64,000 bases of DNA from Candidatus Levyibacteriota bacterium (GCA_963722305.1 CAVRKE010000002.1:40566-104565); one strand, 5' to 3'. Shown: positions 7,322 to 26,274, counted from the stretch's first letter. Program-made: numbers and translations. The notes: generated from the sequence alone by a model not told the origin.

Positions 7322-8173
7322 GGGTAATCCCACCCTGTTGGTACAAAATCGTTAGAATATGATTATGTACCATTTAAAACAAGTACCTACGGATGCCCAG
7401 ATTAAAAAGTTTCTCAGAAGAACTGTTTTTGGTAGAAATATCTTCTGTCCAAAGTGCAAATCCTGGAATATTGTTCGCTTTGAAAAAAGATACAGATGTA
7501 GACAATGTCAGATTAAGTTCTCGCTGTTTTCCCATACCTGGCTTTGCAATGTGAAGATTCCTTTGCAGAGATTTTGGTTAATTCTCTGGTGCTGGACAAA
7601 ACAAATGCCGGTTAAACAGACTGAAGATCTAACTTCTTTGTCTGAGAAGGGAGTCAGACATTACTTTGACTTGTTCAGAGAACAATTACCAAGAGATCAG
7701 AGGCTTCTAGAGCATATTGTCCAGCTTGATGAGGCCTACTTTGGCAGATTTGGTAATACCGCACTTCTCATGGGAAAGGAGAGAGGAACCAGAAAGCTTG
7801 CTTATCAAATCCTCTCCTCTGATGCCCCAGCGAAGAAAGATGCAATTGATTTTGTTAGAACTTACGTTAAACCAGAGTCTCAACTAAATACAGATGGCTC
7901 TACTATTTACAAAAATATTGATAAGTATTATCCTCTATTCCATATGACAGACATTCACAAGAAATTTGAGTTTACCAACACCTCTGAAATTGAAGGAATG
8001 TTTGGCGTTTTAAGGACTTTTATCCGGAGGATGTACCACCATGTCAGTGAAGAAAAGCTTGAAGAATATGTCTGTGAATTTTACTGCAGATTTTCCAGAC
8101 CGGAAATGTTTAAATCTCCTTACCATTACTTGCAAAACACGCTACATGCTTTACCAACAGGGTAGGAGAACCC
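7322..8173 (+). mobile_element. IS1595-family insertion sequence (ISXO2-like), 852 bp, with 22-bp imperfect TIRs (GGGTAATCCCACCCTGTTGGTA / reverse complement of TACCAACAGGGTAGGAGAACCC, 19/22 identical) and 8-bp direct target duplication AAAAAATT (7314-7321 and 8174-8181)
   Basis: The TIRs and the target-site duplication were read directly from the sequence. An 8-bp duplication is characteristic of IS1595. Confidence 0.75.
7359..8165 (+). CDS. IS1595-family (ISXO2-like) DDE transposase
   Basis: N-terminal Zn-finger CPKCKS...RCRQC. DDE-region motifs QLDEAYFG, NTDGSTIYK, FTNTSEIEGMFGVLRTFIRR. Confidence 0.8.
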   Translation: MIMYHLKQVPTDAQIKKFLRRTVFGRNIFCPKCKSWNIVRFEKRYRCRQCQIKFSLFSHTWLCNVKIPLQRFWLILWCWTKQMPVKQTEDLTSLSEKGVRHYFDLFREQLPRDQRLLEHIVQLDEAYFGRFGNTALLMGKERGTRKLAYQILSSDAPAKKDAIDFVRTYVKPESQLNTDGSTIYKNIDKYYPLFHMTDIHKKFEFTNTSEIEGMFGVLRTFIRRMYHHVSEEKLEEYVCEFYCRFSRPEMFKSPYHYLQNTLHALPTG

Positions 8174-12077: not shown

Positions 12078-13335
12078 ATTAATTAAGAAAAGATTAATTT
12101 TCCTCCTTCCTATTATGGCTGTTATTGGACCCGGAATTATTGCCGGGAACGCCGATAATGACGCCGGAGGAATTACAACTTATTCGGTCGCGGGAGCCAA
12201 CTTCGGACTGTCGCTTTTATGGGTACTGCTTTTGACCACTTTTGCCTTAGCCATCACTCAGGAAATCGGGGCGCGCATGGGACTGGTCACAGGGAAAGGC
12301 TTGGCTTCAATTATCAGGGAAAAATTTGGCATTCGCTGGACCACTTTTGTGATGGCCTGTCTGTTTATCTCAAACATTGGCACTATTTCTGCCGAATTTG
12401 CCGGGGTTGCTACAGCCCTGAGCATTTTTCATATCTCGAAATTTATCTCCGTTCCAATCGCTATCGCTGCGATATTTTTGCTGGTCACAAGAGGCAATTT
12501 TAAAAAACTGGAAAGGCTTTTTTTACTAATGTCCGTTTTTTATATTTGCTACATCGTTTCGGCACTCCTTGCCCATCCTAATTTCGGATTGGCGTTAAAA
12601 AGCCTGGCAATGCCTGTCGGAATCAAATTGAATGGTGTCTACATTTTAACTTTAATGGCGGTGATCGGAACCACCATCACCCCCTGGGGACAGTTTTTTA
12701 TCCAAGATTATGTCGTTGATAAAAAACTGACAAAGAACGATTTAAAAATCGAAAGAGGCGACGTATTTGTAGGCAGTTTTTTTACCAATTTCATTTCCTT
12801 TTTCATTATCGTCGCCTGCGCCGCCACACTGTTTGCTAAAGGAATAAGAATTACCGATGCCAGTCAGGCAGCTTTAGCTTTGGTACCTTTAGCCGGGCAG
12901 TTTGCGGCGGCTTTGTTTGCTTTCGGATTTTTAAATGCATCCCTGTTTGGTGCCGCCATCGTCCCGGTTACCACCTCTTATGTTATAACCGAAGCTTTTG
13001 GTTTAGAGTCCGGTTTGAATTTTAAATTCAGAGAAGCTCCGGAGTTTTACGGACTATTCTTACTGCTGTTAATCCTTGGAGGGACAGTTGTATTACTGCC
13101 GTTTATTCCTCTAATTACAATCCTGGTTGTTACCCAGGCCATTAACGCCGCGCTTTTAATTCCGATCTTTATTTTCCTTTATATTGTGTCTAATGATAAA
13201 AAACTACTCGGGGAATACGTCAACGGCAAAATCGTCAATATTGTTTTGATTATTACTTTAATTCTAATTGCAGCTGCTTCCACTCTTTATGCAATTTCTT
13301 TCTTCGCCCCCAGCCTCTTCAATTTTTTCCACTAA
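12064..13335 (+). CDS. NRAMP-family divalent-cation transporter with non-canonical metal site (NRMT-like, putative Mg2+/Mn2+ transporter)
   Basis: TM1 motif GPGIIAGNADNDAGGITTYSVAGANFGLSLLW against canonical GPG...DPGN...LLW. TM6 reads GTTITPWGQFF in place of the A-x-x-MPH motif. Probable true start ATG 12064 (MKLFKLIKK), overlapping the upstream stop by 14 nt. The ORF track extends it to 12013. Confidence 0.7.
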   Translation: MKLFKLIKKRLIFLLPIMAVIGPGIIAGNADNDAGGITTYSVAGANFGLSLLWVLLLTTFALAITQEIGARMGLVTGKGLASIIREKFGIRWTTFVMACLFISNIGTISAEFAGVATALSIFHISKFISVPIAIAAIFLLVTRGNFKKLERLFLLMSVFYICYIVSALLAHPNFGLALKSLAMPVGIKLNGVYILTLMAVIGTTITPWGQFFIQDYVVDKKLTKNDLKIERGDVFVGSFFTNFISFFIIVACAATLFAKGIRITDASQAALALVPLAGQFAAALFAFGFLNASLFGAAIVPVTTSYVITEAFGLESGLNFKFREAPEFYGLFLLLLILGGTVVLLPFIPLITILVVTQAINAALLIPIFIFLYIVSNDKKLLGEYVNGKIVNIVLIITLILIAAASTLYAISFFAPSLFNFFH

Positions 13336-13427
13336 TGACAACATAAACTTACAAGCTATATCTATTTTAGGACTTGACAACTACTTATTTTTAGATATAC
13401 GATATATTTGAATTTATCATTTCATTA

Positions 13428-14324
13428 ATGAATATTAAAACCGGACTACATCACATTAGGCATACACGACCTCAGTGGTATAAACAATATCACGAATGGG
13501 AACCGCACGTCTTTTTGCACTGGACTGCCTTTATTATTTCTTCCATCATTATCCTTTTGGGTTTAACCAATGCAGTTTCCCAATTGCAGGTAAAAAAAGC
13601 CGGCGCCACCTCGTCGTCAACCACCTTAAGCCAAGACTTAACTTCAGGTACACTGACAATTAGTAATACCGGTGGCCAAACTTTAACTGCAGGAGCTGTT
13701 TCCACCAGCAGTCAACTAACCACCGGCAGCTTGGGAACAATTACTTTGGTTGACAACCGAGGAACCGGTGTTGGCTGGAGTGCAACCGCCACCTCAACAA
13801 ATTTTATAAAATATAATAATCCGGTGACAACCGGAGGAACAAATGATACTCTCAGCGTAGACAGTACCTCAACCTACGATAGTACCACCGGAGGAACTTA
13901 TACGGTTACCATTACCACCGGCGGATCGGTTGGAACGGCCAAGTTTGATGTCAGTGGATTGGAAACTGCAACCGGCGTCTCTACCGGTGCAAGTGTATCT
14001 GTGGGAACACGCGGATTGGTGCTTGATTTTGCCGCCGCCACTTATACTACCAGTGATTCATGGACTATCAGAGTTGATGTTATACCGGTTACCGGTTTAC
14101 AAATCACTCCGGGTACGTTAACCACTATTGCCGGTTCGTCTTCAAACGTTACTGCCGGATCTGTACATACCTTTACCGATACAGCCGATGCCACCGATTT
14201 AATTACTGCCTCATCCGGTTATGGAATGGGATCGTACTCAGTCGCCCCTGCTTTACAATTAACCATTCCCGCCAGCAGCTACGCAAATACCTATACGGCA
14301 ACTGTGGTTGAAACCGTTCTCTAA
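13428..14324 (+). CDS. WxL-like cell-surface protein (CscB-like)
   Basis: Signal/TM segment, Thr/Ser/Gly-rich core, motif DNRGTGVGWSATATSTNF and C-terminal YSVAPALQLTIPASSYANTYTATV resembling the two WxL motifs. Confidence 0.5.
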   Translation: MNIKTGLHHIRHTRPQWYKQYHEWEPHVFLHWTAFIISSIIILLGLTNAVSQLQVKKAGATSSSTTLSQDLTSGTLTISNTGGQTLTAGAVSTSSQLTTGSLGTITLVDNRGTGVGWSATATSTNFIKYNNPVTTGGTNDTLSVDSTSTYDSTTGGTYTVTITTGGSVGTAKFDVSGLETATGVSTGASVSVGTRGLVLDFAAATYTTSDSWTIRVDVIPVTGLQITPGTLTTIAGSSSNVTAGSVHTFTDTADATDLITASSGYGMGSYSVAPALQLTIPASSYANTYTATVVETVL

Positions 14325-14335
14325 AGATATTCATT

Positions 14336-15427
14336 ATGACTAACCTGCCTTCCATATTTAAAAAGTTTGTTTTTGGTCGAAACGTTCTTTTACCCCTCCT
14401 TTTTTTTGTTTTGACTTTTTTTTTGTTCGTTGTGCCGGTCTTAGCTGTAAGCTCACAAACTATTAGCGCCAACCCCACCAATCCATCGCCGTCGGACCCC
14501 AGATCAAAATCCTGGTTTATTTATTCTCTGCCGGCCGGCGTCACGAAAAAAGACACTGTTACTGTTGAAAATAACAGCAATCAACCGATTACCTTAAAAG
14601 TCTATGCGGCCGACTCATTAAAAACCAGCCAAGGTGGTTTTGCCCTCGCCAACGAAGACGCAGCAAAGAAAGGGTTAGGTTCATGGGTAAAATTAAGCGT
14701 TGCGGAAGTAACCCTCGGTCCGAATGAAGAAAGAAACATTCCTTTTACTATTTCTATCCCCGCGCAAACTCCAACGGGTGAATATTCCGGCGGAATAATT
14801 TTTCAAGAAACGCAGCCACAAAAATTTACTGGCGGCAACGGCGTTGGAATCAACGTTATTTCCCGAGTCGGAGTACGAATTTATGAAACAGTACCGGGAG
14901 TTAATCAACTAAGCTTGGCCGTTAAGGATTTTCGCTATTCGGTGGCGGACAACAATCTGATTTTTAGCTTTACGGTTGAAAATAAAGGCACAGTCTTTAT
15001 TTCACCAACGGGGACGCTGGAAGTGAAAGATATGATTGGACAAGTGATAAGCGATATACCGCTAGATAACATATTGGGTGTAGTCATACCCGGAGTACCC
15101 AGAACAATAGTCGTCCCCACACAAATTGCCTCACCGATATTTGGTTGGAATACGGCCAGTGTCGCCCTATATTACTCTCCAACCAAAACCGCCATGGCCA
15201 GCATTGTCTTTATGCCAAATCTATGGCCACTGTACATCATAGTTTTTCTAATTGTCTTATTTGTCCTCTACTTATTGCTGAGAAAAAAATTAGTCGGTGC
15301 TAAGGGTAAGCTTTTAACCAACAAGCCGTCAGCGAAAGTCCTACTCGGTGTCGGTGCTATTTTATTGGGGACGGTTATATTTAGTTATCTGATTGTTTAC
15401 CTCTTTGGTTTATTACTGACAAAATAA
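14336..15427 (+). CDS. DUF916-like cell-surface protein with C-terminal membrane anchor (CscA-like)
   Basis: Signal peptide. SWFIYSLPAGVTKKDTVTVENNSNQPITLKVYAAD and GEYSGGIIFQE match the DUF916 pattern. C-terminal TM anchor WPLYIIVFLIVLFVLYLLLRKK. Confidence 0.5.
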   Translation: MTNLPSIFKKFVFGRNVLLPLLFFVLTFFLFVVPVLAVSSQTISANPTNPSPSDPRSKSWFIYSLPAGVTKKDTVTVENNSNQPITLKVYAADSLKTSQGGFALANEDAAKKGLGSWVKLSVAEVTLGPNEERNIPFTISIPAQTPTGEYSGGIIFQETQPQKFTGGNGVGINVISRVGVRIYETVPGVNQLSLAVKDFRYSVADNNLIFSFTVENKGTVFISPTGTLEVKDMIGQVISDIPLDNILGVVIPGVPRTIVVPTQIASPIFGWNTASVALYYSPTKTAMASIVFMPNLWPLYIIVFLIVLFVLYLLLRKKLVGAKGKLLTNKPSAKVLLGVGAILLGTVIFSYLIVYLFGLLLTK

Positions 15428-15518
15428 TATCTGCCTTGCTTCTTTGGATGAGCGCTTCATATTCTCATATTTTTATACTACAATTAGATTGAAGCCTCTT
15501 TAATGGGGTTTTAACAAA

Positions 15519-18392
15519 ATGAAGTTTTGGACAAAATTTTGGCAGAAAAATAAAATCAGTTTTAAAAAACGCTTTGTTTATACCATCCTTCTAACCATCA
15601 TTTTCTTATTTTTAACTACGTCCAAGGCTTTTGCTACTACCTACAATTGCACCACCACTACCAGCGGCACTTGGAACTGGAATGTTGCCGCTGATTGGAC
15701 ATCGGGCACTTGCAACGGTACCTATCCCGGAGGGACCGGGGCACCGGATGTTTACAATGTCGCCATTAATTCTACCACTGCCACCACCATTAATCTGAAT
15801 GTTAATCCGGCAACCATCGGCACTATTACCATTATTGGCAACGGAGTTAGCCACACCATCAACTTTAACGGCCATACCATGACTACCAGCAGCACCACCA
15901 CCATCAATGCCCCAACAGCTGTCATGACCAATTCAATCTCGGTTGATAGCGGTACTTTTAATGCCGGCGGAAACGTGACAATTACCTCCGGCTCAGCCGC
16001 CACCAGGGTTTCCCAGCTCACTGTCTCGACCGGCAATATCAATATTAGCGGCAGCGTGACCTATGGCGGAACAGCAGCAGGAGCTAAATTAATAGTTTCA
16101 AGTGTTGGCAATATCAGTGCCACCAGTGTTGGCGCCAGCGGATATTTTAGCGCCACATCGTCAGGCACTTTAAAACTTACGGGAGCAGCGCCGGTTATTC
16201 AGGTCGGAGCAAATTATACTTATGCCAATTTAAATATGGCCGGATCCGGAACTGCTACTTTTTCCGCCAGCGGTGGGGCACTAAGCGGAACTCTGACTAT
16301 AAATTCCGGAACTTTAGATTTTGGCGCTAATGCCGTCACTGTTTCCGGCGCAACGGAAGTAACGGGTAGCGGAACAATTACTTTTTCATCAGCCACTAAT
16401 ACCAAGATTTTCGTCGGTCTTGTCACGTTAGACTCGGGCAGCATTTGGAATAATTCCGGCAATAGCGCGGTCACTTTTGAAGGAGGACTGACGAACAACG
16501 GCGCGGCCACACTGACGATGGGAACAGGCACGCAAACTTTTAGCACCAATGCCCAAGCCATCGGCGGGACTAGCGGAATCTCTATTCCGAGCATGACTGT
16601 GACAGGCATTGTGGTCACCAATAATTTTACTAGTAGCGCCGTCTCCTTAACCGTTACTACTACTCTTGCGGGAACAGGGACTTTAAGGCAAGCTGCCAAC
16701 GGCTATTTAACTATTTCCGGCAATACCACTATTACCACCTTGGATTGCACGACCAATACTCCCAATACGGTTGAGTATAACGGCTCAGGCGCACAAACCG
16801 TCAAGGGCACTACCTATTATTATTTGCTGCATTCAGGCGCCGGCAACGGCACGATTGGCGCAAATACGACCGTGAATAATAATCTAGACGTCACCGGAGG
16901 GACCTTTACTATCGGAGCATACACAACCTCCGTCAGCGGCACTACTACTATTAGTAGCGGTGCTACCCTAGCTATTACCTCAACTACCGGCACGAAAACC
17001 TTTACCAATCTGACTATTTCCGATGGCGGTACATTCAGTTTTAGCGCCGCAGAGGCAATTACTATGAGCGGAAATTTAACCATCAATGGCGCCGGAGCAA
17101 TTAGCGGTACCACCGGTCTTTGGACCTTTCAGGCTGCTTCCGGCGGAACAATCGGCGGCACCACCACCGGAACCACCACCCTGGGCTCTGCCACCTTTAC
17201 CACCGCCTATTCGGTCGGAATTCCAATCACCTCAACCGGCACTTTAACTGTCACCGGAGTGACTTTAACCAATAATTCTACTCTGACGGCCTCAGCTGCT
17301 TTATCCGGAACATCAGGCACGCTTTTGCAGGGTGCTAATTCAACCTTAATTTTAGGCACAACCAGTGGAATCACCACCCTCACTGCCAACGCCAGTCCAA
17401 ACTTAGTGAAATATATCGGCACGTCCACACAAACGATTAAAGTTCCCTCATCAAGCTACAATAATTTGGAATATGCCGGATCAAGTACGGGCACTTTGGG
17501 AGGCAGTTTTACGGTCGACGGAAATTTTACCATTGACAGTGGCGGCACGGTTGCCGCATCCACTTATAATCTAAGCATTGGCGGAAATTTTTCCAATAGC
17601 GGGACGTTTACGGCCAACACCGGCACGGTGACCTTTGTGAATGCGGCCTTAACCTCTACTATTTCAAATCCTTCCTCCGGTACAACTTTTAATAATTTTA
17701 CCGTCAATACTGCCGGTAAAGCTTTAGTTTTTGACCACACTGACCAGACAACTATCGGCGGAACTTTGACGTTAAACGGGCAGGCCTGCGGCACCATGAT
17801 TACTCTGTCGTCCGATCTTGGCGGCTCTCAGTTTAGCATTAATGCTACCGGCACAAAAAGCGTCACTTATGTCAACGTCACGGATTCCAAGGCCATCACC
17901 GCAATTTCGGTTACCAATAGTAAAGGTTCTAACTATACCAATTGGACTTTTGGTTCGACGACCTGCGGCAGTTTAACTTTAGCCAATCAATCTACTACCA
18001 CTTTAACTGCGGTGACACTTAGCTATCCGGCGCCAAATAGTACCGGCAGTTTAGGACTGGTTACGGCCACCGATACCAGAGGCACCAATGTCGGCTGGAG
18101 CCTAACAGCCACCTCCAGTAATTTTACCGTCAGCTCACATACCATCAATGTCACCAATTTTACCATTAACCCCAACAACTCAACCTTAACTGTAGTTTCC
18201 GGTTCGGGTACCGGGGTTACTGCCGGCACTGCGCATACTTTTACCGGCACCTCCGACCCGGCCACCGTAATTACTACTTCAGGCGAAAACGGTACCGGAC
18301 AATATACGATTAACCCCGATTTAAGCCTGACTATTCCGGCCGGCTCTTATACGGGCAGCTATACTGCTACCATTACTCTGACTTTACAGTAA
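15519..18392 (+). CDS. Large Thr/Gly/Ser-rich surface protein with C-terminal WxL-like domain (CscC-like)
   Basis: 957 aa, N-terminal anchor/signal, long beta-helix-like T/G/S/N repeats, C-terminal DTRGTNVGWSLTATSSNF ... LSLTIPAGSYTGSYTATI. Confidence 0.5.
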   Translation: MKFWTKFWQKNKISFKKRFVYTILLTIIFLFLTTSKAFATTYNCTTTTSGTWNWNVAADWTSGTCNGTYPGGTGAPDVYNVAINSTTATTINLNVNPATIGTITIIGNGVSHTINFNGHTMTTSSTTTINAPTAVMTNSISVDSGTFNAGGNVTITSGSAATRVSQLTVSTGNINISGSVTYGGTAAGAKLIVSSVGNISATSVGASGYFSATSSGTLKLTGAAPVIQVGANYTYANLNMAGSGTATFSASGGALSGTLTINSGTLDFGANAVTVSGATEVTGSGTITFSSATNTKIFVGLVTLDSGSIWNNSGNSAVTFEGGLTNNGAATLTMGTGTQTFSTNAQAIGGTSGISIPSMTVTGIVVTNNFTSSAVSLTVTTTLAGTGTLRQAANGYLTISGNTTITTLDCTTNTPNTVEYNGSGAQTVKGTTYYYLLHSGAGNGTIGANTTVNNNLDVTGGTFTIGAYTTSVSGTTTISSGATLAITSTTGTKTFTNLTISDGGTFSFSAAEAITMSGNLTINGAGAISGTTGLWTFQAASGGTIGGTTTGTTTLGSATFTTAYSVGIPITSTGTLTVTGVTLTNNSTLTASAALSGTSGTLLQGANSTLILGTTSGITTLTANASPNLVKYIGTSTQTIKVPSSSYNNLEYAGSSTGTLGGSFTVDGNFTIDSGGTVAASTYNLSIGGNFSNSGTFTANTGTVTFVNAALTSTISNPSSGTTFNNFTVNTAGKALVFDHTDQTTIGGTLTLNGQACGTMITLSSDLGGSQFSINATGTKSVTYVNVTDSKAITAISVTNSKGSNYTNWTFGSTTCGSLTLANQSTTTLTAVTLSYPAPNSTGSLGLVTATDTRGTNVGWSLTATSSNFTVSSHTINVTNFTINPNNSTLTVVSGSGTGVTAGTAHTFTGTSDPATVITTSGENGTGQYTINPDLSLTIPAGSYTGSYTATITLTLQ

Positions 18393-18533
18393 ACAAAACT
18401 CTACAATCTACCCAGTTTCCAAAGGACTTTTTTTCACAAAGTGATTGCATTTACAACTTGTTTATGAAAAAATATATATAAGCTGTTATGCATACTAATC
18501 TAAATAGAAAAGCACTTATTCGTTACAATACCG

Positions 18534-19454
18534 ATGAATAGTCCGAAACCAAGCCTTCACAAGCTTATCTATCACCACTTAAGATATACCAGACCACAAT
18601 GGTATAGGGATTACCACAAGTGGAAACACGTTGATACCCTGCATTGGCTGACGCTTATTTTTTCCTCCTTTGCAATTGTGGTCGGATTTATGAACGCCTT
18701 ATTGTTAATACAACAGTCTCCCTTGAATTCTACTTATGCCGCTTCCGGAACAACCACTATCAGTCAGCAAGTTAACGCCGGAACGCTCAATATCAGTACC
18801 AATACCAGTTCTACCTTAACGGCCGTGACTGTCAACGCCACCTCCAGCCAATCTTCTACCGGTAACCTTGGCACATTAACTGTTACCGATAACCGGGGTT
18901 CGGGTGTCGGCTGGTCTTCAACCGCCACCAGTAGCGACTTCACCTTTATTAACGCGGCGGTAAAAGTGTCCGGCTCAAATAGTACGGTCACTTCCGGAGG
19001 AACCTATACTAATTCAACCGCCGGCACTTATACGATTACCATTACTACCGGCGGAGCGGTTGGGGTGGCCAAATTTAGCGTAGCGGGCTTAGAATCCGCC
19101 TCCAACCAGACTACCGGCACAGGAGTAGCTATTGGCACCAGAGGCGTAACCGCGACTTTTGGTACCGCCACCTACGCACTTAGCGATTCCTGGACGATTC
19201 GGGTGGATACAATACCGGTAACTAATTTAATGCTTACTCCCAATACTTTTACCACCGTCGCCGGTTCCTCAACCGGTGTTAGTAACGGAACCGCGCATAC
19301 TTTTACCACCACTTCAGACCCGGCAACTATCATTACCGCCTCCTCGGGCAACGGAATGGGCTCTTATTCGGATAATCCGGCCCTACAGCTGACTGTTCCG
19401 GCTGCATCTTATGCAAATTCTTATACGGCAACCATTACCGAAACCGTCAATTAA
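18534..19454 (+). CDS. WxL-like cell-surface protein (CscB-like paralogue)
   Basis: Paralogue of the 13428 gene: DNRGSGVGWSSTATSSDF and ALQLTVPAASYANSYTATI. Confidence 0.5.
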   Translation: MNSPKPSLHKLIYHHLRYTRPQWYRDYHKWKHVDTLHWLTLIFSSFAIVVGFMNALLLIQQSPLNSTYAASGTTTISQQVNAGTLNISTNTSSTLTAVTVNATSSQSSTGNLGTLTVTDNRGSGVGWSSTATSSDFTFINAAVKVSGSNSTVTSGGTYTNSTAGTYTITITTGGAVGVAKFSVAGLESASNQTTGTGVAIGTRGVTATFGTATYALSDSWTIRVDTIPVTNLMLTPNTFTTVAGSSTGVSNGTAHTFTTTSDPATIITASSGNGMGSYSDNPALQLTVPAASYANSYTATITETVN

Positions 19455-19458
19455 AAAT

Positions 19459-21051
19459 ATGCTTAAATTACTTTCCAGATTTAAGAAACAATTCGTAATC
19501 GGCTTGTTTTTGTTTTCTGCCTTAGTTTTTTTCTTCAGTGTCAGTCGTACTTTTGCCGCCGAGGGAAACCTGGGGGCATATCCGACCAATTTTGACGAAA
19601 GCAATCCGAAAACCAAATCCTGGTTTATTTACCAATTAAAACCGGGCGAGTCAAAAGACGACAGCATCACAGTTGTTAATAATTCCGATAAAGAATTGAG
19701 CGTTAGAGTATATGCTGTTGATGCCACCACCACCAGTGACGGGGCCTTTGCCCTTCTCAATGAAAACCAAAGGCAGAATGATGTCGGCAGCTGGGTCAGT
19801 ATCTCCAAGGATGTCATTACCATTGCACCGAGAAGCCGCATCGATGTGCCCTTTACTATTTCTATTCCCAAATACGTTACTGTCGGAGATCACGCCGGCG
19901 GGATTATTGTTCAAGAAGCAACCGCTCCTACAGCCGCTAATGCAGGGATGGCCTTGAATATTGTCTCCAGAGTCGGCACCAGGATTTACGAAACAGTACC
20001 GGGAGACAAAGTGATTAAGCTGGACCTGACCGGTTTTGCTTACAAAATTATCGACACGCATCTGGTTTTTACTTTTAATTTGGTGAATCAAGGCAACGTG
20101 ATTTTAAATCCAACCGGAGACTTGGAAGTTAAAGACTATACCGGTAAAACGATTGATAAGATTACCCTCGGCAATTTGGGTTCGGTTTTTCCCGGAAAAC
20201 CGACCGCTATCACCGTCGCATCCACCCAGACCGCTCCTATATTTGGGCAATATACGGCAGTGGCAACTGTCAATTATTCTCCGATCGAGTCTATTTCTAA
20301 GAGCTTAACGTTCTTTATTTACGTCAACGACTGGCGCTACGCCTCAATAATTCCACTGGCGCTATTGGCACTCTTGATTTTATTTAGAGTGCGTAAAATT
20401 ATTCCTTCCTGGTTTAGAAACCGCCGCAGATTTACCGACACCGTAATTCCCGCGCCCCAACCGGCTCCGGCCATTGCGAAAAGCGTGGGAAAGAAACACC
20501 AGAAAGAACCGCTTATTTTAGCCGAGGAGCAAGCTATACCGGAAAATTACGTCGACAGTTTATTTGTGGCGCACCACCTTAAACTACTGGTTATTCTAAA
20601 CGCAATTGTTATCGTAGTCCTTAGTATTTTGTTCGGATTTATCTTGCAATCTTCGGTAATTACGAAAATAACTTCGGCTGCAAACGGTAATAATCCTTCC
20701 CTACCCGCTTCTAATGTTAATCCCCAGCCGACGGCTGTTCCGCCTCCGGCTGCACCCCCAGCCTCTGCCCCGGTGCCGACCGTAGCAAAAGCGGATATGC
20801 AAATTCAAATCTTAAACGGAGGCGGTGTGATTGGCGCTGCCAAAGCTTTAGCCGACAAACTAACCGCGGCCGGTTTTAACATCACCCAAATCGGCAATGC
20901 CGCTACCGAATCGGCCCAAACAATTGTTGAATATCCTGATCTGCAAAGTTCGGGAACAAACCTGTTAATCAATGCCTTGGAACCCGATTATTCAAATGTG
21001 GTAGAACAGTCCACCGATTCCTCTTATTTTGTAATCATTATCGGGAGATAA
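19459..21051 (+). CDS. DUF916-like surface protein with TM segment and C-terminal LytR_C-type domain
   Basis: KSWFIYQLKPGESKDDSITVVNNSDKELSVRVYAVD (DUF916-like), TM helix, Pro-rich linker, C-terminal MQIQILNGGGVIGAAKALADKLTAAGFNITQIGNA...IVEY (LytR_C-like). Probable start ATG 19459 (MLKLLSRF) 4 nt after the upstream stop. The ORF track gives 19411. Confidence 0.5.
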   Translation: MLKLLSRFKKQFVIGLFLFSALVFFFSVSRTFAAEGNLGAYPTNFDESNPKTKSWFIYQLKPGESKDDSITVVNNSDKELSVRVYAVDATTTSDGAFALLNENQRQNDVGSWVSISKDVITIAPRSRIDVPFTISIPKYVTVGDHAGGIIVQEATAPTAANAGMALNIVSRVGTRIYETVPGDKVIKLDLTGFAYKIIDTHLVFTFNLVNQGNVILNPTGDLEVKDYTGKTIDKITLGNLGSVFPGKPTAITVASTQTAPIFGQYTAVATVNYSPIESISKSLTFFIYVNDWRYASIIPLALLALLILFRVRKIIPSWFRNRRRFTDTVIPAPQPAPAIAKSVGKKHQKEPLILAEEQAIPENYVDSLFVAHHLKLLVILNAIVIVVLSILFGFILQSSVITKITSAANGNNPSLPASNVNPQPTAVPPPAAPPASAPVPTVAKADMQIQILNGGGVIGAAKALADKLTAAGFNITQIGNAATESAQTIVEYPDLQSSGTNLLINALEPDYSNVVEQSTDSSYFVIIIGR

Positions 21052-21116
21052 TAAAAATTGCTGATTAGAAAGTTTTTCTTTTACCCGAAGCCTCTTAAAC
21101 TTTATAAAATAACGGC

Positions 21117-21647
21117 TTATATTTGCGGTGTGGCAACGGCAACAAACCTCTTGCTATCCAAAAACCCGGTGCAGGTATAAATGGTGATTCTACTGTCTTT
21201 TGTTTGCGCTAAAATATGCGTCTCATTGGGGTCGACTACCGAAGTAAACTGAATCACAAACGTTCTTGTTTGCCCGTTATTTAGAACAATTTGAATCGTT
21301 TGCCCCGGTTTCATATTAGTCAATTTACCCAGCAGACTTATCCAATTATGTCCGTATAAAATGCTGTTGCCTCTGGCGCCCGGAACCGGAGAGGATAAAA
21401 GATAAGAAATACCCTTATCGGTTGTTTCCCATTGCCCGTTGGTAATTTTTGCACCATAGATTCCTTCGTCTATTTTTTGTGACGGGATAATTATCCTCAC
21501 GGGAATTAAATTTGAACTCGAAGCACTAACTACTTTTAGATTGTTGAATTCAATTGTTTTTGGACTGTAACGCTGAAAAACCAAGTAGGCACCAAAAAGT
21601 AGTAATAATAGGCCTGAGAAAATTAGAAATTTAGAAGAGAGGCTCAT
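21117..21647 (-). CDS. Sortase (small, class A/E-like)
   Basis: N-terminal TM anchor. Catalytic His in ILYGHNW, Cys in RITIYTCTG (TLxTC-type), Arg in KRFVAVA. Confidence 0.75.
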   Translation of the reverse strand: MSLSSKFLIFSGLLLLLFGAYLVFQRYSPKTIEFNNLKVVSASSSNLIPVRIIIPSQKIDEGIYGAKITNGQWETTDKGISYLLSSPVPGARGNSILYGHNWISLLGKLTNMKPGQTIQIVLNNGQTRTFVIQFTSVVDPNETHILAQTKDSRITIYTCTGFLDSKRFVAVATPQI

Positions 21648-21660
21648 TTTTTCCTTCCTT

Positions 21661-22302
21661 TTATTGCTTTTTCTTTAAAGCCGAAAGAACTCCGCCGCCA
21701 AGCAAAGCCAGCCCCAAGGTGAATACGCTTAAGATAAAGACGATGTTACCGGTTGAAGCCAGTCCAAGCACTGCTTGTGTTGAAGCAGCTAAAACCTGCG
21801 GTGCCTGGGTGCATGACGGACAACTGGATAATCCATCACTTCTTCCGTCTCCACCGCCGCCTCCGCCACCGCCGCCACCCGAATTTGAAGAAGGAGCGCT
21901 GCAGCTATAGCTTAAGTTTTGGGCCAAATAAGGAGCTGCTTCTAATCCCCAGGCCGAACCGTCGGGGATATAAATCCAACCCTGATTAACTAAAACGTCT
22001 TTTTGGTCCTCTGTTAAACTGGATATTTTCCACCAGTTGGTTTGTATTCCACCACCGTTAACGGTACATAAACACTGCGTGACGGTTGCCTCATCCAAAG
22101 TATAAACCGTATCGCTTCCTGTATAAGTGGTGCTGTCTCCCGGTACGCCATGGACTCCGTCCGCGTAGCTTACCGTTACATCTCCTTGGGGATTAAGACA
22201 AGCGGGAAAAGTGGGAGAAACTACGGCGTATGCCGGTCTAACAAAAGCCGATAATAAAATTGCTATTGACAATACCTGTAAAAATAAATACTTGCCTGAC
22301 AT
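21661..22302 (-). CDS. Secreted Cys-containing protein with poly-Gly tract and C-terminal LAxTG-type sorting signal (putative sortase substrate)
   Basis: Signal peptide. GGGGGGGGGGG tract. C-terminus LASTG + hydrophobic segment + KKKQ. Confidence 0.5.
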   Translation of the reverse strand: MSGKYLFLQVLSIAILLSAFVRPAYAVVSPTFPACLNPQGDVTVSYADGVHGVPGDSTTYTGSDTVYTLDEATVTQCLCTVNGGGIQTNWWKISSLTEDQKDVLVNQGWIYIPDGSAWGLEAAPYLAQNLSYSCSAPSSNSGGGGGGGGGGDGRSDGLSSCPSCTQAPQVLAASTQAVLGLASTGNIVFILSVFTLGLALLGGGVLSALKKKQ

Positions 22303-22604
22303 AAAATATATTAAAGCTGTTTTTTTCTATTCAGCAAAATGTTATAGGATTATAGCACTCTTTTTGGAAATGTCAACAGTCAATCCTATAATACTAGCTT
22401 GAGCGTAAGCAACCATTAAACTAAAAGTAATTCCTTTGTTTTAAAACCGCAGCCAATAAAACCCTTTCTGCTTTTTTGAATAATAATTTAAAATTTATGC
22501 TGTAAATTAGATTACAAAATCCAAGTAATTATGTTTACTGAAAGGCTAATTCTTCATCACATATAGTTGATTTAGTAGAACTACACACTATATATATTAA
22601 GACT

Positions 22605-22847
22605 ATGGCACAAACACATCTTGTAAACGCTAAAGGGAATATTCATTCAACCAAAACGGTTTCGGATCACTTGATGCAAGAGCTGATTAGCGCCATGAAA
22701 GACGTGGACGCTTTTGGTAGCGTGGAGATTATGATTCAAGATTATGCGGTGACGCAAATAACGCACCGTTGCATTAGAAAAACAAATGGCTTCCATGAGG
22801 AAGAAACCATAAAGAAAATGAGTTACAAAATGCACCCGGAAGAATAA
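22605..22847 (+). CDS. Small YezD/DUF2292-like protein
   Basis: 80 aa. GSVEIMIQDYAVTQITHRCIRKT resembles the YezD motif. Followed by a strong terminator. Confidence 0.4.
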   Translation: MAQTHLVNAKGNIHSTKTVSDHLMQELISAMKDVDAFGSVEIMIQDYAVTQITHRCIRKTNGFHEEETIKKMSYKMHPEE

Positions 22848-22884
22848 TCTAAAGAAAAGCAGAGGTTATGCCGACCGCAACCGG

Positions 22885-22917
22885 AGGCACCCGTCGAAGA
22901 GGGTGCCTTTTTTTTTA
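22885..22917 (+). terminator. Intrinsic terminator AGGCACCC-GTCGAAGA-GGGTGCCT + T9
   Basis: Read from the sequence. Confidence 0.7.
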
Positions 22918-23009
22918 TTTAAAAATTAAACAAAAATATGTAGATTGATATACAAACAATATGGGATATAAATAAACATAAGTAAAAATAGACATATATC
23001 ATTTTATCA

Positions 23010-23274: not shown

Positions 23275-26274
23275 ATGAAAACCCGAGAAATAAGCGTGGT
23301 TATACCTATCTATAATGAGGCGAAAAACTTGCCGGAACTAATTACGCGTCTTGAACAAGCGCTTGATAAAACCGGGAAAAAATATGAATTGCTGTTTATT
23401 GACGACCATTCGACTGATGATACGGACAAAGTTTTTCAGGCACGAAAAGACGACCAAAATTTAGTCTTGCTTAAAAAGAAAGGCCAAAAAGGCAAAGCTT
23501 ATTCGCTTACGGAAGGTTTTGCTGCTGCCACAGGGGACGCGGTCGTCATGATTGATGCGGATTTACAGTATCCGCCGGAAGCAATCCCCGGAATGGTAGA
23601 AGCTTTGGAAAATGCGGATATCGTAGTCGCCAACAGGAAAAACTATCAAGATTCCCTGCTTAGAAAAGCGCTGAGCAGGACTTTCAGGTTTGGCTTTGGC
23701 AGACTGCTTTTCGGGCTTAACCACGATATTCAATCGGGCCTGAAAGTTTTTTCCCGCGACGTTATTCAAACGATTAATTTTGCGCCTGCATCCGCGTGGA
23801 CTTTTGATTTGGAAATGCTGCATATCGCCCGACATGCGGGATACTCCATAAAAAACTTTGACATTGATTTTGAAAGAAGAAAAAACGGGCATTCAAATGT
23901 TAATGTGCTTAAAACTGCTTTTGAAATTGGCTTTAATTCCCTAAAGCTGCGGACAAAACGGCTTAGTCCCATAACCGTTAAACCGCAAAACGCCGGAAAT
24001 ATGCTTGGAGCAGGTGTTAGGTATAAAAAAAGAGTTTACGTCACACATACGACGCTGTCCCATCATGTGTCCGCACTAAGGACATTTACCTTTTTACAAA
24101 AAGGCATTATCACGCTTTTCCTGATTACTATAATAGTAGGGCTTGCCTTAAAGCCCCTGTTTACCCTTCAAGCTTTAGTGGCTCTTTTAAGCCTGATCTA
24201 TTTTATTGATGTTTTCTTTAATCTTTTTCTGATATTAAAAAGTCTTTCTTTCCCTCAGGAAATTGTTTCTACAGATAAAGAATTGGCCCAAATTAACGAT
24301 AAAGACTTACCGGTTTACACAATTCTTTGTCCTTTATACCGGGAGGCCCATGTTATTCCGCAGTTTATGAATGCGATTAGAAAGCTTTCTTATCCTCGGG
24401 AGAAACTGGATGTAATTCTGCTTTTGGAAGAAGACGACGAAGAATCGATTGCGTCTGTGAAAAAAATGAGATTGCCTGCCTTTGTACGTACCGTTATTGT
24501 TCCTCATTCTATTCCAAAAACCAAGCCGAAAGCCTGCAATTACGGGTTAGCTTTTGCCCGGGGAGAATATTTGGTTATTTTTGATGCCGAAGATATTCCC
24601 GAGCCGATGCAGCTTAAAAAAGCCGTCTTAGGCTTTCAGAAAGTGCCGGCCAATACAATTTGCCTTCAGGCAAAACTTAACTATTATAATCCGCACCAAA
24701 ATCTTTTAACGCGCTTTTTTACCGCCGAGTATTCTTTATGGTTTGACGTAACCCTAACCGGACTGCAATCCATTAACACCACTATTCCTTTGGGAGGAAC
24801 TTCAAACCATTTTAAGATTGAAAGCCTGCGGAAAGTAGAAGGCTGGGATCCGTTTAACGTCACCGAAGACGCGGACCTGGGCATGCGGCTTTTTAAGCGG
24901 GGCTACAAAACCGCCATTATTGACTCCATAACACTTGAGGAAGCAAACAGCAAATACGGCAACTGGCTAAGACAGCGCTCCCGATGGATAAAAGGCTACA
25001 TGCAGACCTACCTGGTGCATGTTCGGGAAACTCTTTCTTTTACTAAAGAGCAGGGCATTCATTCGCTTATTTTTCAGCTTATTATCGGCGGGAAAATCGC
25101 CTTTGTTCTCATTAATCCCCTTTTGTGGCTGGCGACCATTGCCTATTTTACGCTTTACGCTTTTGTCGGTCCGCAGATAGAAGCTTTATACCCGTCGGGC
25201 GTGTTTTACATGGCCGTCGTCTCTTTAGTTTTTGGGAATTTCTTGTTCCTTTACTACTACATGATTGGCGTTGCCAAAAAAGAGCAATGGACGCTGATGA
25301 AGTTTGTTCTTTTAATCCCGATTTACTGGCTGATGATAAGCGTTGCCGCGTTTATCGCTTTATACCAACTGATTTTTAAACCGCATTATTGGGAAAAAAC
25401 AGTGCACGGATTCCATCTTGCGCCAAGTAAAAAAGTTCCGGCCGTTTTCGCTACTGCCATTGCTACGGAAGAAGTCATTTATCTAGCTCCTTTCAGATGG
25501 AGGGCTTTACCAGAAAAAATCGCAACCAGGATAGTGTTTGTTCAAAGCAAAATAATAGAATCGGGGCTAAAGCTCTCCTTACTGATAACAACAGCGATAA
25601 CTACGCTCTTGGATAAAAAGAATTTATACCTTAGTGGAGTCTTATTAATAAGCGCTACGATGACGTCTAACATTCTGAACTTAATCTTTAATATTTATTT
25701 AGGCAGAGCGCTGAGCCTTGAGGAGTTTGGTGAAATAAGTTTATTTACTAGCCTTTTGTACTTAGTTTCTATTCCTTTGGGATCTTTTTCGTCTACGATT
25801 TCGCACAACATTGCCTACCTGTATGGCAAACAATCTAAAGAACATGCACAGGGATACCTTAAATATATTTTTAGAAAATCTCTTGTTTTTGGAATTATTC
25901 TTAGCACGTTATGGTTTTTGCTAACTCCATTTTTGTCAAAGTTTTTCCAGACCGAGTCTCTGGTTCCGATCATCCTTTTTTCACCAATTTGGTTTATAAA
26001 CGTAGCCAGTTCTAATTTCTCAGGATTTTTTGCGGGAACATTATCTTTCGGGAAAAAAGGGTTGATACTTCTGACAGAGTCGGTCGCCAGGCTAATACTG
26101 GCAATTTTATTGGTTTCTGCCGGCTTTTCAAATATTGTATTCTTGGCGATTGTTTCATCTTTAAGCATATCGGTTATAGTCGGTTGGTTATTAGCAAAAG
26201 GGGATCAGGCAAAAGAAGTATCCGTAGCGGACAGAAAGTTTAATTTTACCTTTCTTTCTAACTTCCAATCTTAA
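23275..26274 (+). CDS. Multidomain glycan-synthesis protein: DPM1-like GT2, cellulose-synthase-like processive GT2 (QxxRW), then the N-terminal half of a Wzx-type flippase
   Basis: Domain 1: VVIPIYNEAKNLPEL...LLFIDDHSTDDT...MIDADLQYPPE. Domain 2: YTILCPLYREAH...IFDAEDIPEP...QRSRWIKGYMQ. Flippase start: LGRALSLEEFGE with 6 TMs. The flippase continues out of frame in the next ORF. Confidence 0.7.
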   Translation: MKTREISVVIPIYNEAKNLPELITRLEQALDKTGKKYELLFIDDHSTDDTDKVFQARKDDQNLVLLKKKGQKGKAYSLTEGFAAATGDAVVMIDADLQYPPEAIPGMVEALENADIVVANRKNYQDSLLRKALSRTFRFGFGRLLFGLNHDIQSGLKVFSRDVIQTINFAPASAWTFDLEMLHIARHAGYSIKNFDIDFERRKNGHSNVNVLKTAFEIGFNSLKLRTKRLSPITVKPQNAGNMLGAGVRYKKRVYVTHTTLSHHVSALRTFTFLQKGIITLFLITIIVGLALKPLFTLQALVALLSLIYFIDVFFNLFLILKSLSFPQEIVSTDKELAQINDKDLPVYTILCPLYREAHVIPQFMNAIRKLSYPREKLDVILLLEEDDEESIASVKKMRLPAFVRTVIVPHSIPKTKPKACNYGLAFARGEYLVIFDAEDIPEPMQLKKAVLGFQKVPANTICLQAKLNYYNPHQNLLTRFFTAEYSLWFDVTLTGLQSINTTIPLGGTSNHFKIESLRKVEGWDPFNVTEDADLGMRLFKRGYKTAIIDSITLEEANSKYGNWLRQRSRWIKGYMQTYLVHVRETLSFTKEQGIHSLIFQLIIGGKIAFVLINPLLWLATIAYFTLYAFVGPQIEALYPSGVFYMAVVSLVFGNFLFLYYYMIGVAKKEQWTLMKFVLLIPIYWLMISVAAFIALYQLIFKPHYWEKTVHGFHLAPSKKVPAVFATAIATEEVIYLAPFRWRALPEKIATRIVFVQSKIIESGLKLSLLITTAITTLLDKKNLYLSGVLLISATMTSNILNLIFNIYLGRALSLEEFGEISLFTSLLYLVSIPLGSFSSTISHNIAYLYGKQSKEHAQGYLKYIFRKSLVFGIILSTLWFLLTPFLSKFFQTESLVPIILFSPIWFINVASSNFSGFFAGTLSFGKKGLILLTESVARLILAILLVSAGFSNIVFLAIVSSLSISVIVGWLLAKGDQAKEVSVADRKFNFTFLSNFQS

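Follow-up and report, generated by a model that had tools for sequence, protein, structure and literature searches.

The window analysed here, a 64,000-nucleotide stretch of DNA, carries a cassette of five co-oriented genes on the + strand (13428–21051) and, 65 bp from it on the opposite strand, a two-gene module encoding a sortase and a protein with a sortase-type signal. All seven ORFs were found at the coordinates given for them beforehand. The order within the cassette is small WxL, WxLIP (DUF916), large WxL, small WxL and WxLIP fused to LytR_C, so that one large WxL protein stands between two paralogous small WxL + WxLIP pairs, making this a duplicated cluster. Export is predicted for all five products. 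A promoter-like site, TTGACA-18-TACGAT (13374–13403, + strand), is located 25 bp upstream of the first gene; it has 10 of 12 matches in a scan with a consensus that is not validated for CPR promoters. Among ORFs of at least 150 aa, the flanks of the cassette encode Lon, MgtE_N/CBS, Nramp, the sortase pair and glycosyltransferases.

The two small WxL-like proteins (298 aa, 13428–14324, and 306 aa, 18534–19454, both on the + strand) are 56% identical and belong to one family; that of the second protein comprises 64 clusters. The first, delineated by its ORF, family alignment A1 and custom HMMs, has at its N terminus a conserved extension rich in His, Trp and Tyr, followed by a hydrophobic helix (together aa 4–54), and its WxL core is interrupted by an inserted β domain of about 80 residues (aa 127–209); the HMM scores for the N-terminal part, the core and the insert are 2e-26, 3e-40 and 2e-33, respectively. 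The second is built alike, with the extension at aa 11–61 and the inserted domain at aa 138–217, and its AlphaFold2 model (pLDDT 90.4) displays N-terminal helices followed by an all-β part. The Pfam WxL model (PF13731) matches the second protein at 1e-5 (26.1 bits, cutoff 25), and the first, taken alone, is under that cutoff with 14.3 bits. The model is matched by 30 of 38 members of the small-WxL family and by 19 of 24 compact relatives.

The large WxL protein (957 aa, 15519–18392, + strand) consists of a signal peptide, a passenger of about 770 residues and a C-terminal WxL domain (aa 814–957, nt 17958–18389). This domain is compact, with W-S-L as its first motif; as in Firmicutes, the large protein has the smaller and simpler WxL domain, here without the ~80-aa insert of the small proteins. 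Scanned whole, the protein has no Pfam match; its last 144 residues, scanned alone, match Pfam WxL at 2.2e-8 (34.8 bits, cutoff 25). Furthermore, residues 864–956 are 59% identical to the second small WxL protein, and the core HMM matches the large protein at 1e-48. The preliminary description had ascribed long β-helix-like T/G/S repeats to this protein. The passenger is indeed rich in these residues and in Asn (T 22%, G 13%, S 12%, N 8.5%), but the putative β-helix is suggested by this composition; the passenger has no Pfam or PDB match, no recognised fold and no clear period. The passenger is wholly different from one related cassette to the next (452–957 aa).

All three WxL-like proteins carry a core homologous to the Firmicutes WxL domain. 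When the CPR WxL core was compared profile to profile (hhalign) with nine canonical WxL domains from Firmicutes, the probabilities were 97–98% and the E values 5e-11 to 3e-12 over 108–148 columns, and the CPR core HMM detects canonical WxL proteins of Listeria (1e-8), Bacillus (1e-13), Melissococcus (5e-10) and E. raffinosus (7e-8). Firmicutes WxL domains have a conserved Asp at W1−8, a conserved Arg at W1−6 and a Gly-rich turn ahead of the first Trp (PMC9772566). In the small proteins, the first-motif Trp is invariant (38/38), and the residues near it are kept: Asp at W−8 in 37, Arg at W−6 in 35 and Gly at W−1 in all 38. The two Trp-x-Leu motifs that give the domain its name are not: at the position of the second Trp, 27 of the 38 have Glu, eight have Leu or Met and none has Trp, and the Leu of the first motif is retained in two of the 38 small and three of four large proteins, being mostly Ala otherwise. 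The small-WxL model has no significant PDB match in Foldseek, where the WxL chain of 9i25 was not recovered. The sequence comparisons support the view that the cassette WxL proteins are divergent but genuine relatives of the WxL/WxLIP complex known from lactic acid bacteria.

WxLIP 1 (363 aa, 14336–15427, + strand) matches Pfam WxLIP_PGBD (formerly DUF916, PF06030) at 4.4e-13 (49.8 bits, cutoff 27.3) and consists of a signal peptide, the PGBD/DUF916 domain (aa 55–158), a second Ig-like domain and two TM helices (aa 296–314 and 335–353). WxLIP 2 (530 aa, 19459–21051, + strand), which is 44% identical to WxLIP 1 across residues 1–295, matches PF06030 at 3.9e-15 to 4.1e-15 (56.3 bits against 27.3) and LytR_C (PF13399) at 3.8e-10 to 4.1e-10 (40.9 bits against 22.2). 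Its signal peptide is followed by the PGBD (aa 50–152), an Ig-like domain (~188–287), TM1 (297–315), a basic loop, TM2 (377–395), a Pro-rich linker and the LytR_C domain (aa 447–529, nt 20797–21045). The most likely start of this gene is 19459 and not 19411 (546 aa), because the 530-aa product is on record in public assemblies, in its exact form on a 679,204-bp contig, and the 546-aa product is not. Orthologues of both WxLIPs in three related contigs (L003, L004, L006) likewise have two helices after the ectodomain, as judged from hydropathy and basic loops, whereas one helix follows it in Firmicutes, Arthrobacter and simpler CPR loci.

Structural comparison of the WxLIPs likewise supports homology to the Firmicutes system. 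The best Foldseek matches of the WxLIP 2 model are the E. faecium WxLIP 9i25_C (1e-13, 263 columns spanning both Ig domains) and 9i1y_A/B, and its next neighbours include RbmA (7e-9) and the chaperones CfaA and Caf1M (1e-8 to 5e-8); the pLDDT of the model is 81–93 in the second Ig domain and 29–75, that is, of low confidence, in the PGBD part. The CPR WxLIP HMM detects the WxLIPs of E. faecium (2e-12) and Vagococcus (9e-7). DUF3324/WxLIP_HBD has no match at E≤1 in 19 members, which show only weak matches to generic Ig-like families (DUF7507, ASH, CARDB). The fusion of a DUF916-like protein to LytR_C, remarked upon in the preliminary description, is real, both domains being found together in 19 of the 19 relatives scanned; in sister families, LytR_C is replaced or joined by LysM.

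Hassan et al. 2023 (PMC10599100) define a WxL gene cluster operationally as one or more WxLIPs and two or more WxL proteins encoded within four genes; with two WxLIP and three WxL-like genes in five consecutive ORFs, the locus is a WxL/WxLIP (Csc-like) cluster in this sense. The run of five WxL/DUF916 genes is present as previously claimed, and the Pfam models for WxL, DUF916, LytR_C and Sortase each found a match above cutoff. The five-gene order recurs in four further contigs (L003, L004/L005, L006 and the P0012 contig), and a WxLIP gene adjoins WxL-core genes at most metagenome loci that retain flanking sequence.

We consider it probable that 13428–21051 encodes a lineage-specific, internally duplicated WxL/WxLIP cell-surface complex of a Levybacteria-like CPR bacterium, and we propose the following model for its organization. 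It draws on analogy to the WxLIP-WxL complex of E. faecium (PDB 9i25) and to the model that Hassan et al. 2023 put forward: membrane-embedded WxLIPs would extend their Ig-like ectodomains into the wall zone, where they would hold the WxL-domain proteins non-covalently via β-strand complementation. Peptidoglycan binding, complex formation and the surface location of the cassette products are likewise predicted. The large WxL protein would project its variable, adhesin-like passenger outward from the C-terminal WxL domain; such variability among cassettes would suit a part that binds a host or a ligand. The LytR_C domain of WxLIP 2, predicted to be extracytoplasmic, could provide a second attachment, either to the wall or to wall-building enzymes. 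The N-terminal extension of the small WxL proteins and the extra WxLIP membrane helix co-occur, and they probably mediate a membrane-level contact between the partners or constitute a specialised export signal. The small WxL proteins may stay membrane-anchored, unlike those of Firmicutes, which are released. In an episymbiotic CPR cell, the likely role of such a complex would be adhesion to a host cell or surface.

A more specific reading, which refines the WxL/WxLIP assignment and does not contradict it, is that the cassette corresponds, in Microgenomatia, to the Pam pilus operon of Ca. Mycosynbacter amalyticus. The small WxL-like proteins would then polymerise as pilins through donor-strand exchange, the large one would be a tip or adhesin subunit, and the two WxLIPs would be membrane-anchored chaperones (PamC/PamD-like), with the LytR_C-bearing WxLIP perhaps serving as a terminator or anchor (PamR-like). 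The Pam operon encodes pilins with Ig-like folds, two chaperones with two β domains and a C-terminal TM helix that are FimC/PapD-like by Foldseek, and a two-domain protein resembling RbmA, likewise with a TM helix at its C terminus; the preprint describing it makes no mention of WxL or DUF916 (10.64898/2026.03.03.709456). RbmA and CfaA/Caf1M, the neighbours of our WxLIP model, are the kinds of structure that were used to name PamR and PamC/D, the insertion of a strand from WxLIP into WxL is the mechanism proposed for Firmicutes, and Pam homologues are reported in Saccharimonadia and in Microgenomatia (10.64898/2026.03.03.709456), all of which would fit this reading. The Pam pilins, however, have an NTD-linker-CTD architecture and masses of 38.7 and 55.3 kDa, whereas the small WxL proteins are ~24 kDa when mature and contain one core with an inserted domain. 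Furthermore, no ATP synthase genes, which are said to flank pam operons, are found near the cassette among ORFs of at least 150 aa, and profile searches of PDB sequences, a set that may lack 25PZ and 25QA, gave no pilin match. We regard a Pam counterpart as a less likely, tentative idea and retain the WxL/WxLIP complex as the preferred reading.

The neighbouring module comprises a small membrane-anchored sortase (176 aa, 21117–21647, − strand; Pfam Sortase PF04203, 3e-17, 63 bits) and its dedicated substrate (213 aa, 21661–22302, − strand), in which a signal peptide, four invariant Cys and a Gly/Ser tract precede LASTGN, a hydrophobic helix and KKKQ. Both genes and the LASTG-hydrophobic-KKKQ tail, the sole sortase-type signal within the 64-kb window, are as previously described, but they stand tail-to-tail with the cassette, convergent and not divergent. 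The substrate matched no Pfam family. None of the NCBIfam class models reaches its cutoff on the sortase, the best being class GN (38 against 158 bits), and class E scores 18.6 bits. We take the LAxTG motif to be reminiscent of class E sortase substrates. The sortase has 296 related clusters, the named ones being from Levybacteria or Patescibacteria.

Could the LASTG protein be a CscD-like, covalently anchored member of the complex, and the sortase serve the WxL cluster? A small LPXTG protein is common in Firmicutes WxL clusters (PMC9772566), as seen here in L011, L017 and L020, and the short distance to the cassette would favour such coupling. The pair, however, is on the opposite strand and has its own promoter-like site upstream of the LASTG gene, a perfect TTGACA-16-TATAAT with TG (22376–22349; by the same scan, with a consensus not validated for CPR promoters). 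In three Levybacteria-type contigs (L008, L009, L010), the gene for a LASTG homologue with 51–71% identity and an invariant L-A-x-T-G-N immediately precedes that for the sortase, and ~18 kb of sequence contains neither a WxL nor a WxLIP gene. Conversely, a sortase is absent from every other WxL/WxLIP cassette or locus examined. The closest syntenic contig, L008, is collinear with the window at 70–76% nucleotide identity but has 113 bp in place of the 7.9-kb cassette, so that its sortase abuts Nramp. As the pair is conserved without WxL genes elsewhere, and the other cassettes examined have no sortase, we place it outside the WxL system and consider a sortase-coupled complex very unlikely; judging by this conservation, the sortase/LASTG operon is a separate, housekeeping-type anchoring module that is a neighbour by chance. 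Of the Csc-like locus of the preliminary description, the five genes stand, on the operational definition and on homology to the Firmicutes proteins, and the sortase and its LAxTG substrate drop out.

The nearest named relatives of three different genes are from Candidatus Levyibacteriota/Levybacteria and 'Patescibacteria group', with identities to CPR relatives of 48% (a Levyibacteriota MAG), 56–57% and 63% (a Levybacteria sortase). No rRNA, tRNA or ribosomal marker is present in the window. These relatives, together with a contig of 679 kb, a size typical of CPR genomes, support the assignment of the genome to CPR (Levybacteria-like) and not to Firmicutes, as had been suspected. The accompanying premise that WxL/Csc systems are a Firmicutes feature is dated: relatives are found in many CPR contigs as well as in Actinobacteria and Deinococcus, and proteins of this kind from Levyibacteriota MAGs already bear NCBI labels ('WxL domain-containing protein [Candidatus Levyibacteriota bacterium]', 'DUF916 domain-containing protein [Patescibacteria group bacterium]'). 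DUF916 with WxL-like partners is found in Paenibacillus as well, and 265 representatives of the CPR-type WxL family were counted at E≤1e-10 among 1.84 billion. That the cassette is foreign DNA, from a recent transfer out of Firmicutes or Actinobacteria or from a chimeric assembly, is improbable in the extreme: it is an indel relative to L008 and its GC (0.43–0.49) is slightly higher than that of the flanks, but a Logan run and the 679-kb record gave the same sequence in independent assemblies, the nearest relatives of each cassette gene are CPR, no Firmicutes protein is among the matches of two of the searches, Lactobacillales WxLIPs match at E 0.2–0.8 only (Actinobacteria, 1e-8 to 4e-17), the WxL family has diversified inside CPR-type contigs, the GC3 of the cassette (0.41–0.50) is within that of its neighbours (0.39–0.49), and there are no flanking repeats of at least 9 bp and no mobility genes inside it.

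The WxL clusters of Lactobacillales and Listeria (cscA-D of Lactiplantibacillus plantarum, E. faecium loci A–C, the E. faecalis elr operon) share with the cassette (i) adjacent, co-oriented genes for a small WxL protein, for a large one whose WxL domain is C-terminal and whose passenger varies, and for a membrane-anchored DUF916/WxLIP protein, (ii) a homologous WxL core with the Asp/Arg/Gly-turn/Trp signature, and (iii) the WxLIP fold, solved for E. faecium and matched by our model. The Firmicutes PGBD motif NQIDKxxxYFDLK (PMC10599100) is resembled by the motif NPKTKSWFIYELK in the N-terminal PGBD of the cassette proteins (alignment A3). On sequence grounds, the loss of the second Trp-x-Leu motif, the ~80-residue insert, the His/Trp-rich extension (~30 conserved residues before the hydrophobic helix), the two-helix WxLIP anchors in place of one helix and the conserved LytR_C fusion are lineage-specific. 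The cassette further differs from the Firmicutes clusters in the Ala that mostly replaces the first Leu, in giving no DUF3324 sequence signal, in the duplication of its unit into a fixed five-gene order, in having no LPXTG member and in its host, a CPR bacterium and not a gut or food Firmicute. Siezen et al. reportedly described, in 2006, a small LPXTG-anchored member, CscD, in the cscA-D cluster; no CscD-type LPXTG-anchored member is present in the cassette, and the LASTG protein belongs to a separate convergent operon.

The DUF916 loci of Actinobacteria, represented by the Arthrobacter caoxuetaonis plasmid NZ_CP099467.1, resemble the CPR WxLIPs more closely in sequence than Lactobacillales proteins do. 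In Arthrobacter, the DUF916 gene is preceded by one annotated as 'hypothetical protein', which matches the CPR WxL core HMM at 3e-11 and likewise has a single Trp. This locus differs in its single C-terminal TM helix with a basic tail and in having neither LytR_C nor the N-terminal extension. LytR_C itself is known as a solo or LCP-appended domain: the C-terminal 83 residues of WxLIP 2 match Mycobacterium Rv0431 (PDB 2m5y) at 5.6e-8 and, weakly, the NCBIfam model Cei (envelope integrity protein). In WxLIP 2, as in the Rv0431/Cei proteins, a TM helix and a Pro-rich linker precede the domain, for which an extracellular location is predicted. Its attachment to a WxLIP is a combination undescribed in the literature consulted.

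Compared by description only, the Pam pili (bioRxiv 10.64898/2026.03.03.709456) are likewise the product of a CPR-specific operon of secreted Ig-like subunits and membrane-anchored two-domain 'chaperones', have, like the cassette, no dedicated trans-envelope machine, and are reported in the class to which Levybacteria belong, Microgenomatia; the pilin architecture has no obvious match to a WxL core with an insert. It is conceivable, if doubtful, that the Levybacteria WxL/WxLIP cassette and the Saccharimonadia Pam pili are one ancient system, in which the Pam 'chaperones' and anchor would be DUF916/WxLIP proteins and the strand-accepting pilin domain would be of WxL type. If so, a chaperone-driven, usher-less pilus would be related to the WxL clusters found in enterococci, listeriae and lactobacilli, and small WxL proteins might polymerise and not merely decorate the wall.

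Five consecutive genes on the forward strand of the window (13428–21051) form a cassette that is best read as encoding a Firmicutes-type complex for non-covalent surface display. Gene 1 (13428–14324) is an ORF for a small WxL protein with a sub-threshold Pfam WxL score of 14.3 bits, and gene 2 (14336–15427) encodes a WxLIP, a membrane-anchored protein that matches Pfam WxLIP_PGBD (formerly DUF916) at 4.4e-13. The full-length product of gene 3 (15519–18392), a large WxL protein of 957 aa, has no match in Pfam; its last 144 residues match Pfam WxL at 34.8 bits and are 59% identical to gene 4 (18534–19454), a second small WxL protein that scores 26.1 bits, just above the cutoff of 25. Gene 5 (19411/19459–21051, with the start most likely at 19459) encodes a second WxLIP (4.1e-15) that ends in a LytR_C domain (4.1e-10). 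Two reverse-strand genes follow, a sortase (21117–21647, Pfam Sortase 3e-17) and an ORF (21661–22302) whose product has a C-terminal tail of LASTGN, hydrophobic helix and KKKQ, the sole signal of its kind across the window. Each unit, the cassette and the sortase pair, is preceded by its own promoter-like site found by pattern matching. All seven genes of the preliminary description are thus present as ORFs, with WxLIP_PGBD, LytR_C, Sortase and (in gene 4) WxL domains detected and the LASTG tail confirmed; the sortase pair, which it called divergent, is convergent with the cluster.

The WxL identity of the CPR proteins is supported by profile comparisons. Pfam WxL is matched by 30 of the 38 members of the small-protein family (best 2.3e-7) and by 19 of 24 compact relatives (best 3e-10). 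When the full alignment of small CPR WxL proteins was compared by hhalign with a canonical set of nine WxL domains from Enterococcus, Vagococcus, Listeria, Bacillus, Melissococcus and Lactococcus plasmids, only the last 43 C-terminal columns aligned, at 78% probability. The small proteins contain an inserted domain of ~80 residues, and a convincing match emerged only after its removal: a revised core profile, from which the insert was taken out and to which the compact domains from the C-termini of the large proteins were added, matched canonical WxL over 108–148 columns at 97–98% probability (E 5e-11 local, 3e-12 global). A direct search with the core HMM likewise detects canonical WxL proteins (1e-8 to 1e-13). 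Among the residues around the first WxL motif that the literature singles out (PMC9772566), the CPR cores retain the Asp at W−8, the Arg at W−6, the Gly turn and the first Trp, and the Leu of this motif is mostly Ala. The second Trp-x-Leu motif is absent from the small proteins, its Trp being found in 0 of 38 and replaced by Glu in 27. An AlphaFold2 model of a small WxL protein (pLDDT 90.4) has no significant neighbour in the PDB by Foldseek, and the WxL chain of the Enterococcus faecium structure 9i25 was not recovered; PDB sequence searches with the profiles for WxL, and with the C-terminus and the passenger (the T/G/S/N-rich N-terminal region) of the 957-aa protein, likewise gave no match. 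In the 957-aa protein the WxL part proposed earlier lies at the C-terminus. The passenger carries no significant internal repeat or period, so that the "beta-helix" suggested by its composition stays a guess.

The small WxL proteins begin with a conserved His/Trp/Tyr-rich segment, HHIRHTRPxWYxxYHxWEHHxTLHW, after which come a long helix of hydrophobic residues and a small-x-small (A-x-A-like) site. The segment and the helix span 13437–13589 (amino acids 4–54) in the first small protein and 18564–18716 (amino acids 11–61) in the second, both on the forward strand. The conservation of the segment far exceeds that of an ordinary signal-peptide n-region (at least 90% in 38 proteins at positions R20, P21, W23, Y24, Y27, H28, W30, H37 and W38), and together with the helix it may anchor the protein in the membrane or serve as an unusually elaborate signal peptide. 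The segment was seen only in loci with two-helix WxLIPs, the two features co-occurring in the window and in L003, L004 and L006; both are absent from simpler CPR loci, Arthrobacter and Firmicutes, which have one-helix WxLIPs and ordinary WxL signal peptides.

The WxLIP proteins are related to those of Firmicutes. In the AlphaFold2 model of gene 5, a pair of beta-sandwich domains is accompanied by two long helices and a LytR_C domain of alpha/beta type; among PDB entries the model most closely matches 9i25_C ("bound to long WxL") and 9i1y, both E. faecium WxLIP structures (E 1e-13 to 3e-12, ~263 columns). The CPR WxLIP HMM detects WxLIPs of E. faecium (2e-12) and Vagococcus (9e-7); DUF3324, named in the preliminary description as a domain to look for, gave no sequence signal in any of the 19 WxLIPs scanned. 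Both WxLIPs of the cassette have two predicted membrane helices, separated by a basic loop, and beyond the second helix of gene 5 come a Pro-rich linker and LytR_C, which is therefore predicted to lie outside the cell. This fusion, unfamiliar when first noted, is kept in 19 of 19 relatives. Sister WxLIP families bear LysM, with or without LytR_C, which argues that the C-terminal position after the second helix holds a wall-binding module. One sister family of CPR WxLIPs, of 575–686 aa, has LysM repeats after this helix (L007 4732–6744; L023 10025–12085; P0024–P0032), and L023 shows two LytR_C-like stretches.

The gene order of the cassette recurs in L003 (a Levyibacteriota MAG), L004/L005, L006 and the P0012 contig, with one additional SdrD_B-domain gene in L003. 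Among these cassettes the large WxL protein varies from 452 to 957 aa and its N-terminal parts are unrelated, the pattern that would be expected of a variable ligand-binding passenger. A search with the WxLIP profile yielded 15 metagenome loci; in most of those that keep their flanks a WxL-core gene adjoins the WxLIP gene, and several carry a simpler three-gene unit. The closest syntenic contig, L008, is collinear with the window at 70–76% nucleotide identity (Lon, MgtE_N/CBS and Nramp, then sortase and glycosyltransferase), and window positions 13242–21139 are replaced there by 113 bp (reverse complement 8910–9023). The cassette is thus a clean 7.9-kb indel relative to L008, with no flanking repeats of at least 9 bp, no mobility genes inside and no composition signal, GC3 being within the local range. 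Directly upstream lie a PRC-barrel/MgtE_N/CBS protein and an Nramp transporter (10890–13335), and an IS1595-family (ISXO2-like DDE) transposase gene (7359–8165) follows Lon closely on its downstream side, ~5 kb away from the cassette. At a second indel, ~0.56 kb of the window (22392–22955) with one small ORF (22605–22847) stands opposite L008 5717–7682, which carries two NAD-dependent epimerase/dehydratase genes.

On the comparison with L008, the position of the cassette next to the sortase operon is incidental. In L008, L009 and L010 the sortase gene is always preceded by a co-oriented gene of 188–213 aa that is 51–71% identical to the LASTG protein and in which four Cys and L-A-x-T-G-N are invariant; none of these loci has WxL genes, and none of the 15 WxLIP loci has a sortase gene. 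The proposal that the sortase and its substrate belong to the WxL system was rejected on these comparisons; the pair is a neighbour of the cassette, not a member. The sortase fits none of the NCBIfam sortase classes. The LASTG protein family is uncharacterised, without a Pfam or NCBIfam match, and has conserved NPQG, GVHGVPGD, TQCLC and GIQTNWWK motifs.

As no tRNA, rRNA or Rfam family was found in the window, its lineage was judged from relatives. A 679,204-bp contig and, independently, a Logan assembly of 10.9 kb carry the exact products, in the case of gene 5 with the start at 19459 and not with the longest ORF. With one genome per GTDB species, gene 5 has a single relative, from a Candidatus Levyibacteriota MAG (48% identity); named relatives of gene 4 are Levyibacteriota (56–57%), and those of the sortase are Candidatus Levybacteria, "Patescibacteria group" and one 1.2-kb contig labelled Ignavibacteria. 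Taxonomy lookup places Levyibacteriota in the Microgenomates group of the Patescibacteria group, and no Firmicutes protein is among the relatives. This is good evidence, from relatives rather than marker-gene phylogeny, for the CPR origin supposed at the outset. A fermentative CPR organism would fit the gene content, which includes PFOR, ADP-forming acetyl-CoA synthetase, NiFe hydrogenase, Suf and a large locus of glycosyltransferases. The ~14 kb of glycosyltransferase genes (GT2, GT4, DegT-like) are headed by a 999-aa fusion (23275–26274) of two GT2 domains and a flippase-like Polysacc_synt membrane domain, whose L008 orthologue has 1572 aa and extra GT4 domains. A 949-aa protein (47988–50837), directly followed by PFOR subunit genes, joins ADP-forming acetyl-CoA synthetase (CoA_binding, Succ_CoA_lig, ATP-grasp_5) to C-terminal FAD_binding_6 and NAD_binding_1, a fusion that we do not recognise.

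WxL systems had been taken as a Firmicutes feature, and Firmicutes do hold 91% of 938 WxL sequences (PMC9772566); the matches reported here extend beyond them. In tblastn, the CPR WxLIP gives E values of 1e-8 to 4e-17 against Actinobacteria, Paenibacillus and Deinococcus, much stronger matches than those to Lactobacillales (0.2–0.8). On the Arthrobacter caoxuetaonis plasmid NZ_CP099467.1, the "hypothetical protein" gene immediately upstream of a DUF916 gene (L013 5113–5760) matches the WxL-core HMM at 3e-11, so unannotated WxL-like partners of DUF916 exist in Actinobacteria. The CPR-type WxL profile matched 1860 representatives among 1.84 billion at E<=1e-3 and 265 at E<=1e-10. NCBI pipeline names for these proteins are already present in Levyibacteriota and Patescibacteria MAGs; no paper treating WxL or DUF916 in CPR was found in the literature searched.

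From the domain composition, homology, gene order and topology of the cassette we infer how its products may bind, localise and function. The membrane-anchored WxLIPs would hold WxL domains through strand complementation, the large WxL protein would bear a variable adhesin, and LytR_C would supply additional wall attachment. A possible, though rather unlikely, extension is that these clusters form one superfamily with the operons of the "Pam" pili, described in a Saccharimonadia bacterium in a June 2026 preprint (10.64898/2026.03.03.709456) and known here by that description only. The preprint, which mentions neither WxL nor DUF916, describes Ig-like pilins linked via donor-strand exchange, their assembly by two membrane-anchored two-domain "chaperones" and an RbmA-like anchor, and Microgenomatia homologues, all of which suggests the link; the pilin architecture as described does not obviously match the small WxL proteins. 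Ten 370–525-aa representatives and contig L036, considered as possible PamA/PamB relatives, showed no ATP synthase neighbourhood. A CBS-domain CorB-like transporter and an MFS transporter lie near pam operons (10.64898/2026.03.03.709456); since L008 has the MgtE_N/CBS–Nramp pair regardless of the cassette, this likeness is probably coincidence. If true, the link would join two literatures without mutual citation and point to a mechanism, open to testing, by which the Firmicutes complexes assemble.

The Csc-like cluster is, in any case, a genuine variant of a known system, conserved and resident in CPR bacteria. Work on WxL clusters has treated them as adhesion and virulence factors in Firmicutes of the gut and of food. 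With the conserved, elaborated Levybacteria version, the system reaches episymbiotic small-genome bacteria, for whose lifestyle attachment to surfaces is central. Its natural variants, namely the single-Trp core, the inserted domain, the two-helix anchor and the LytR_C or LysM appendages, indicate which features of the WxL system are dispensable.
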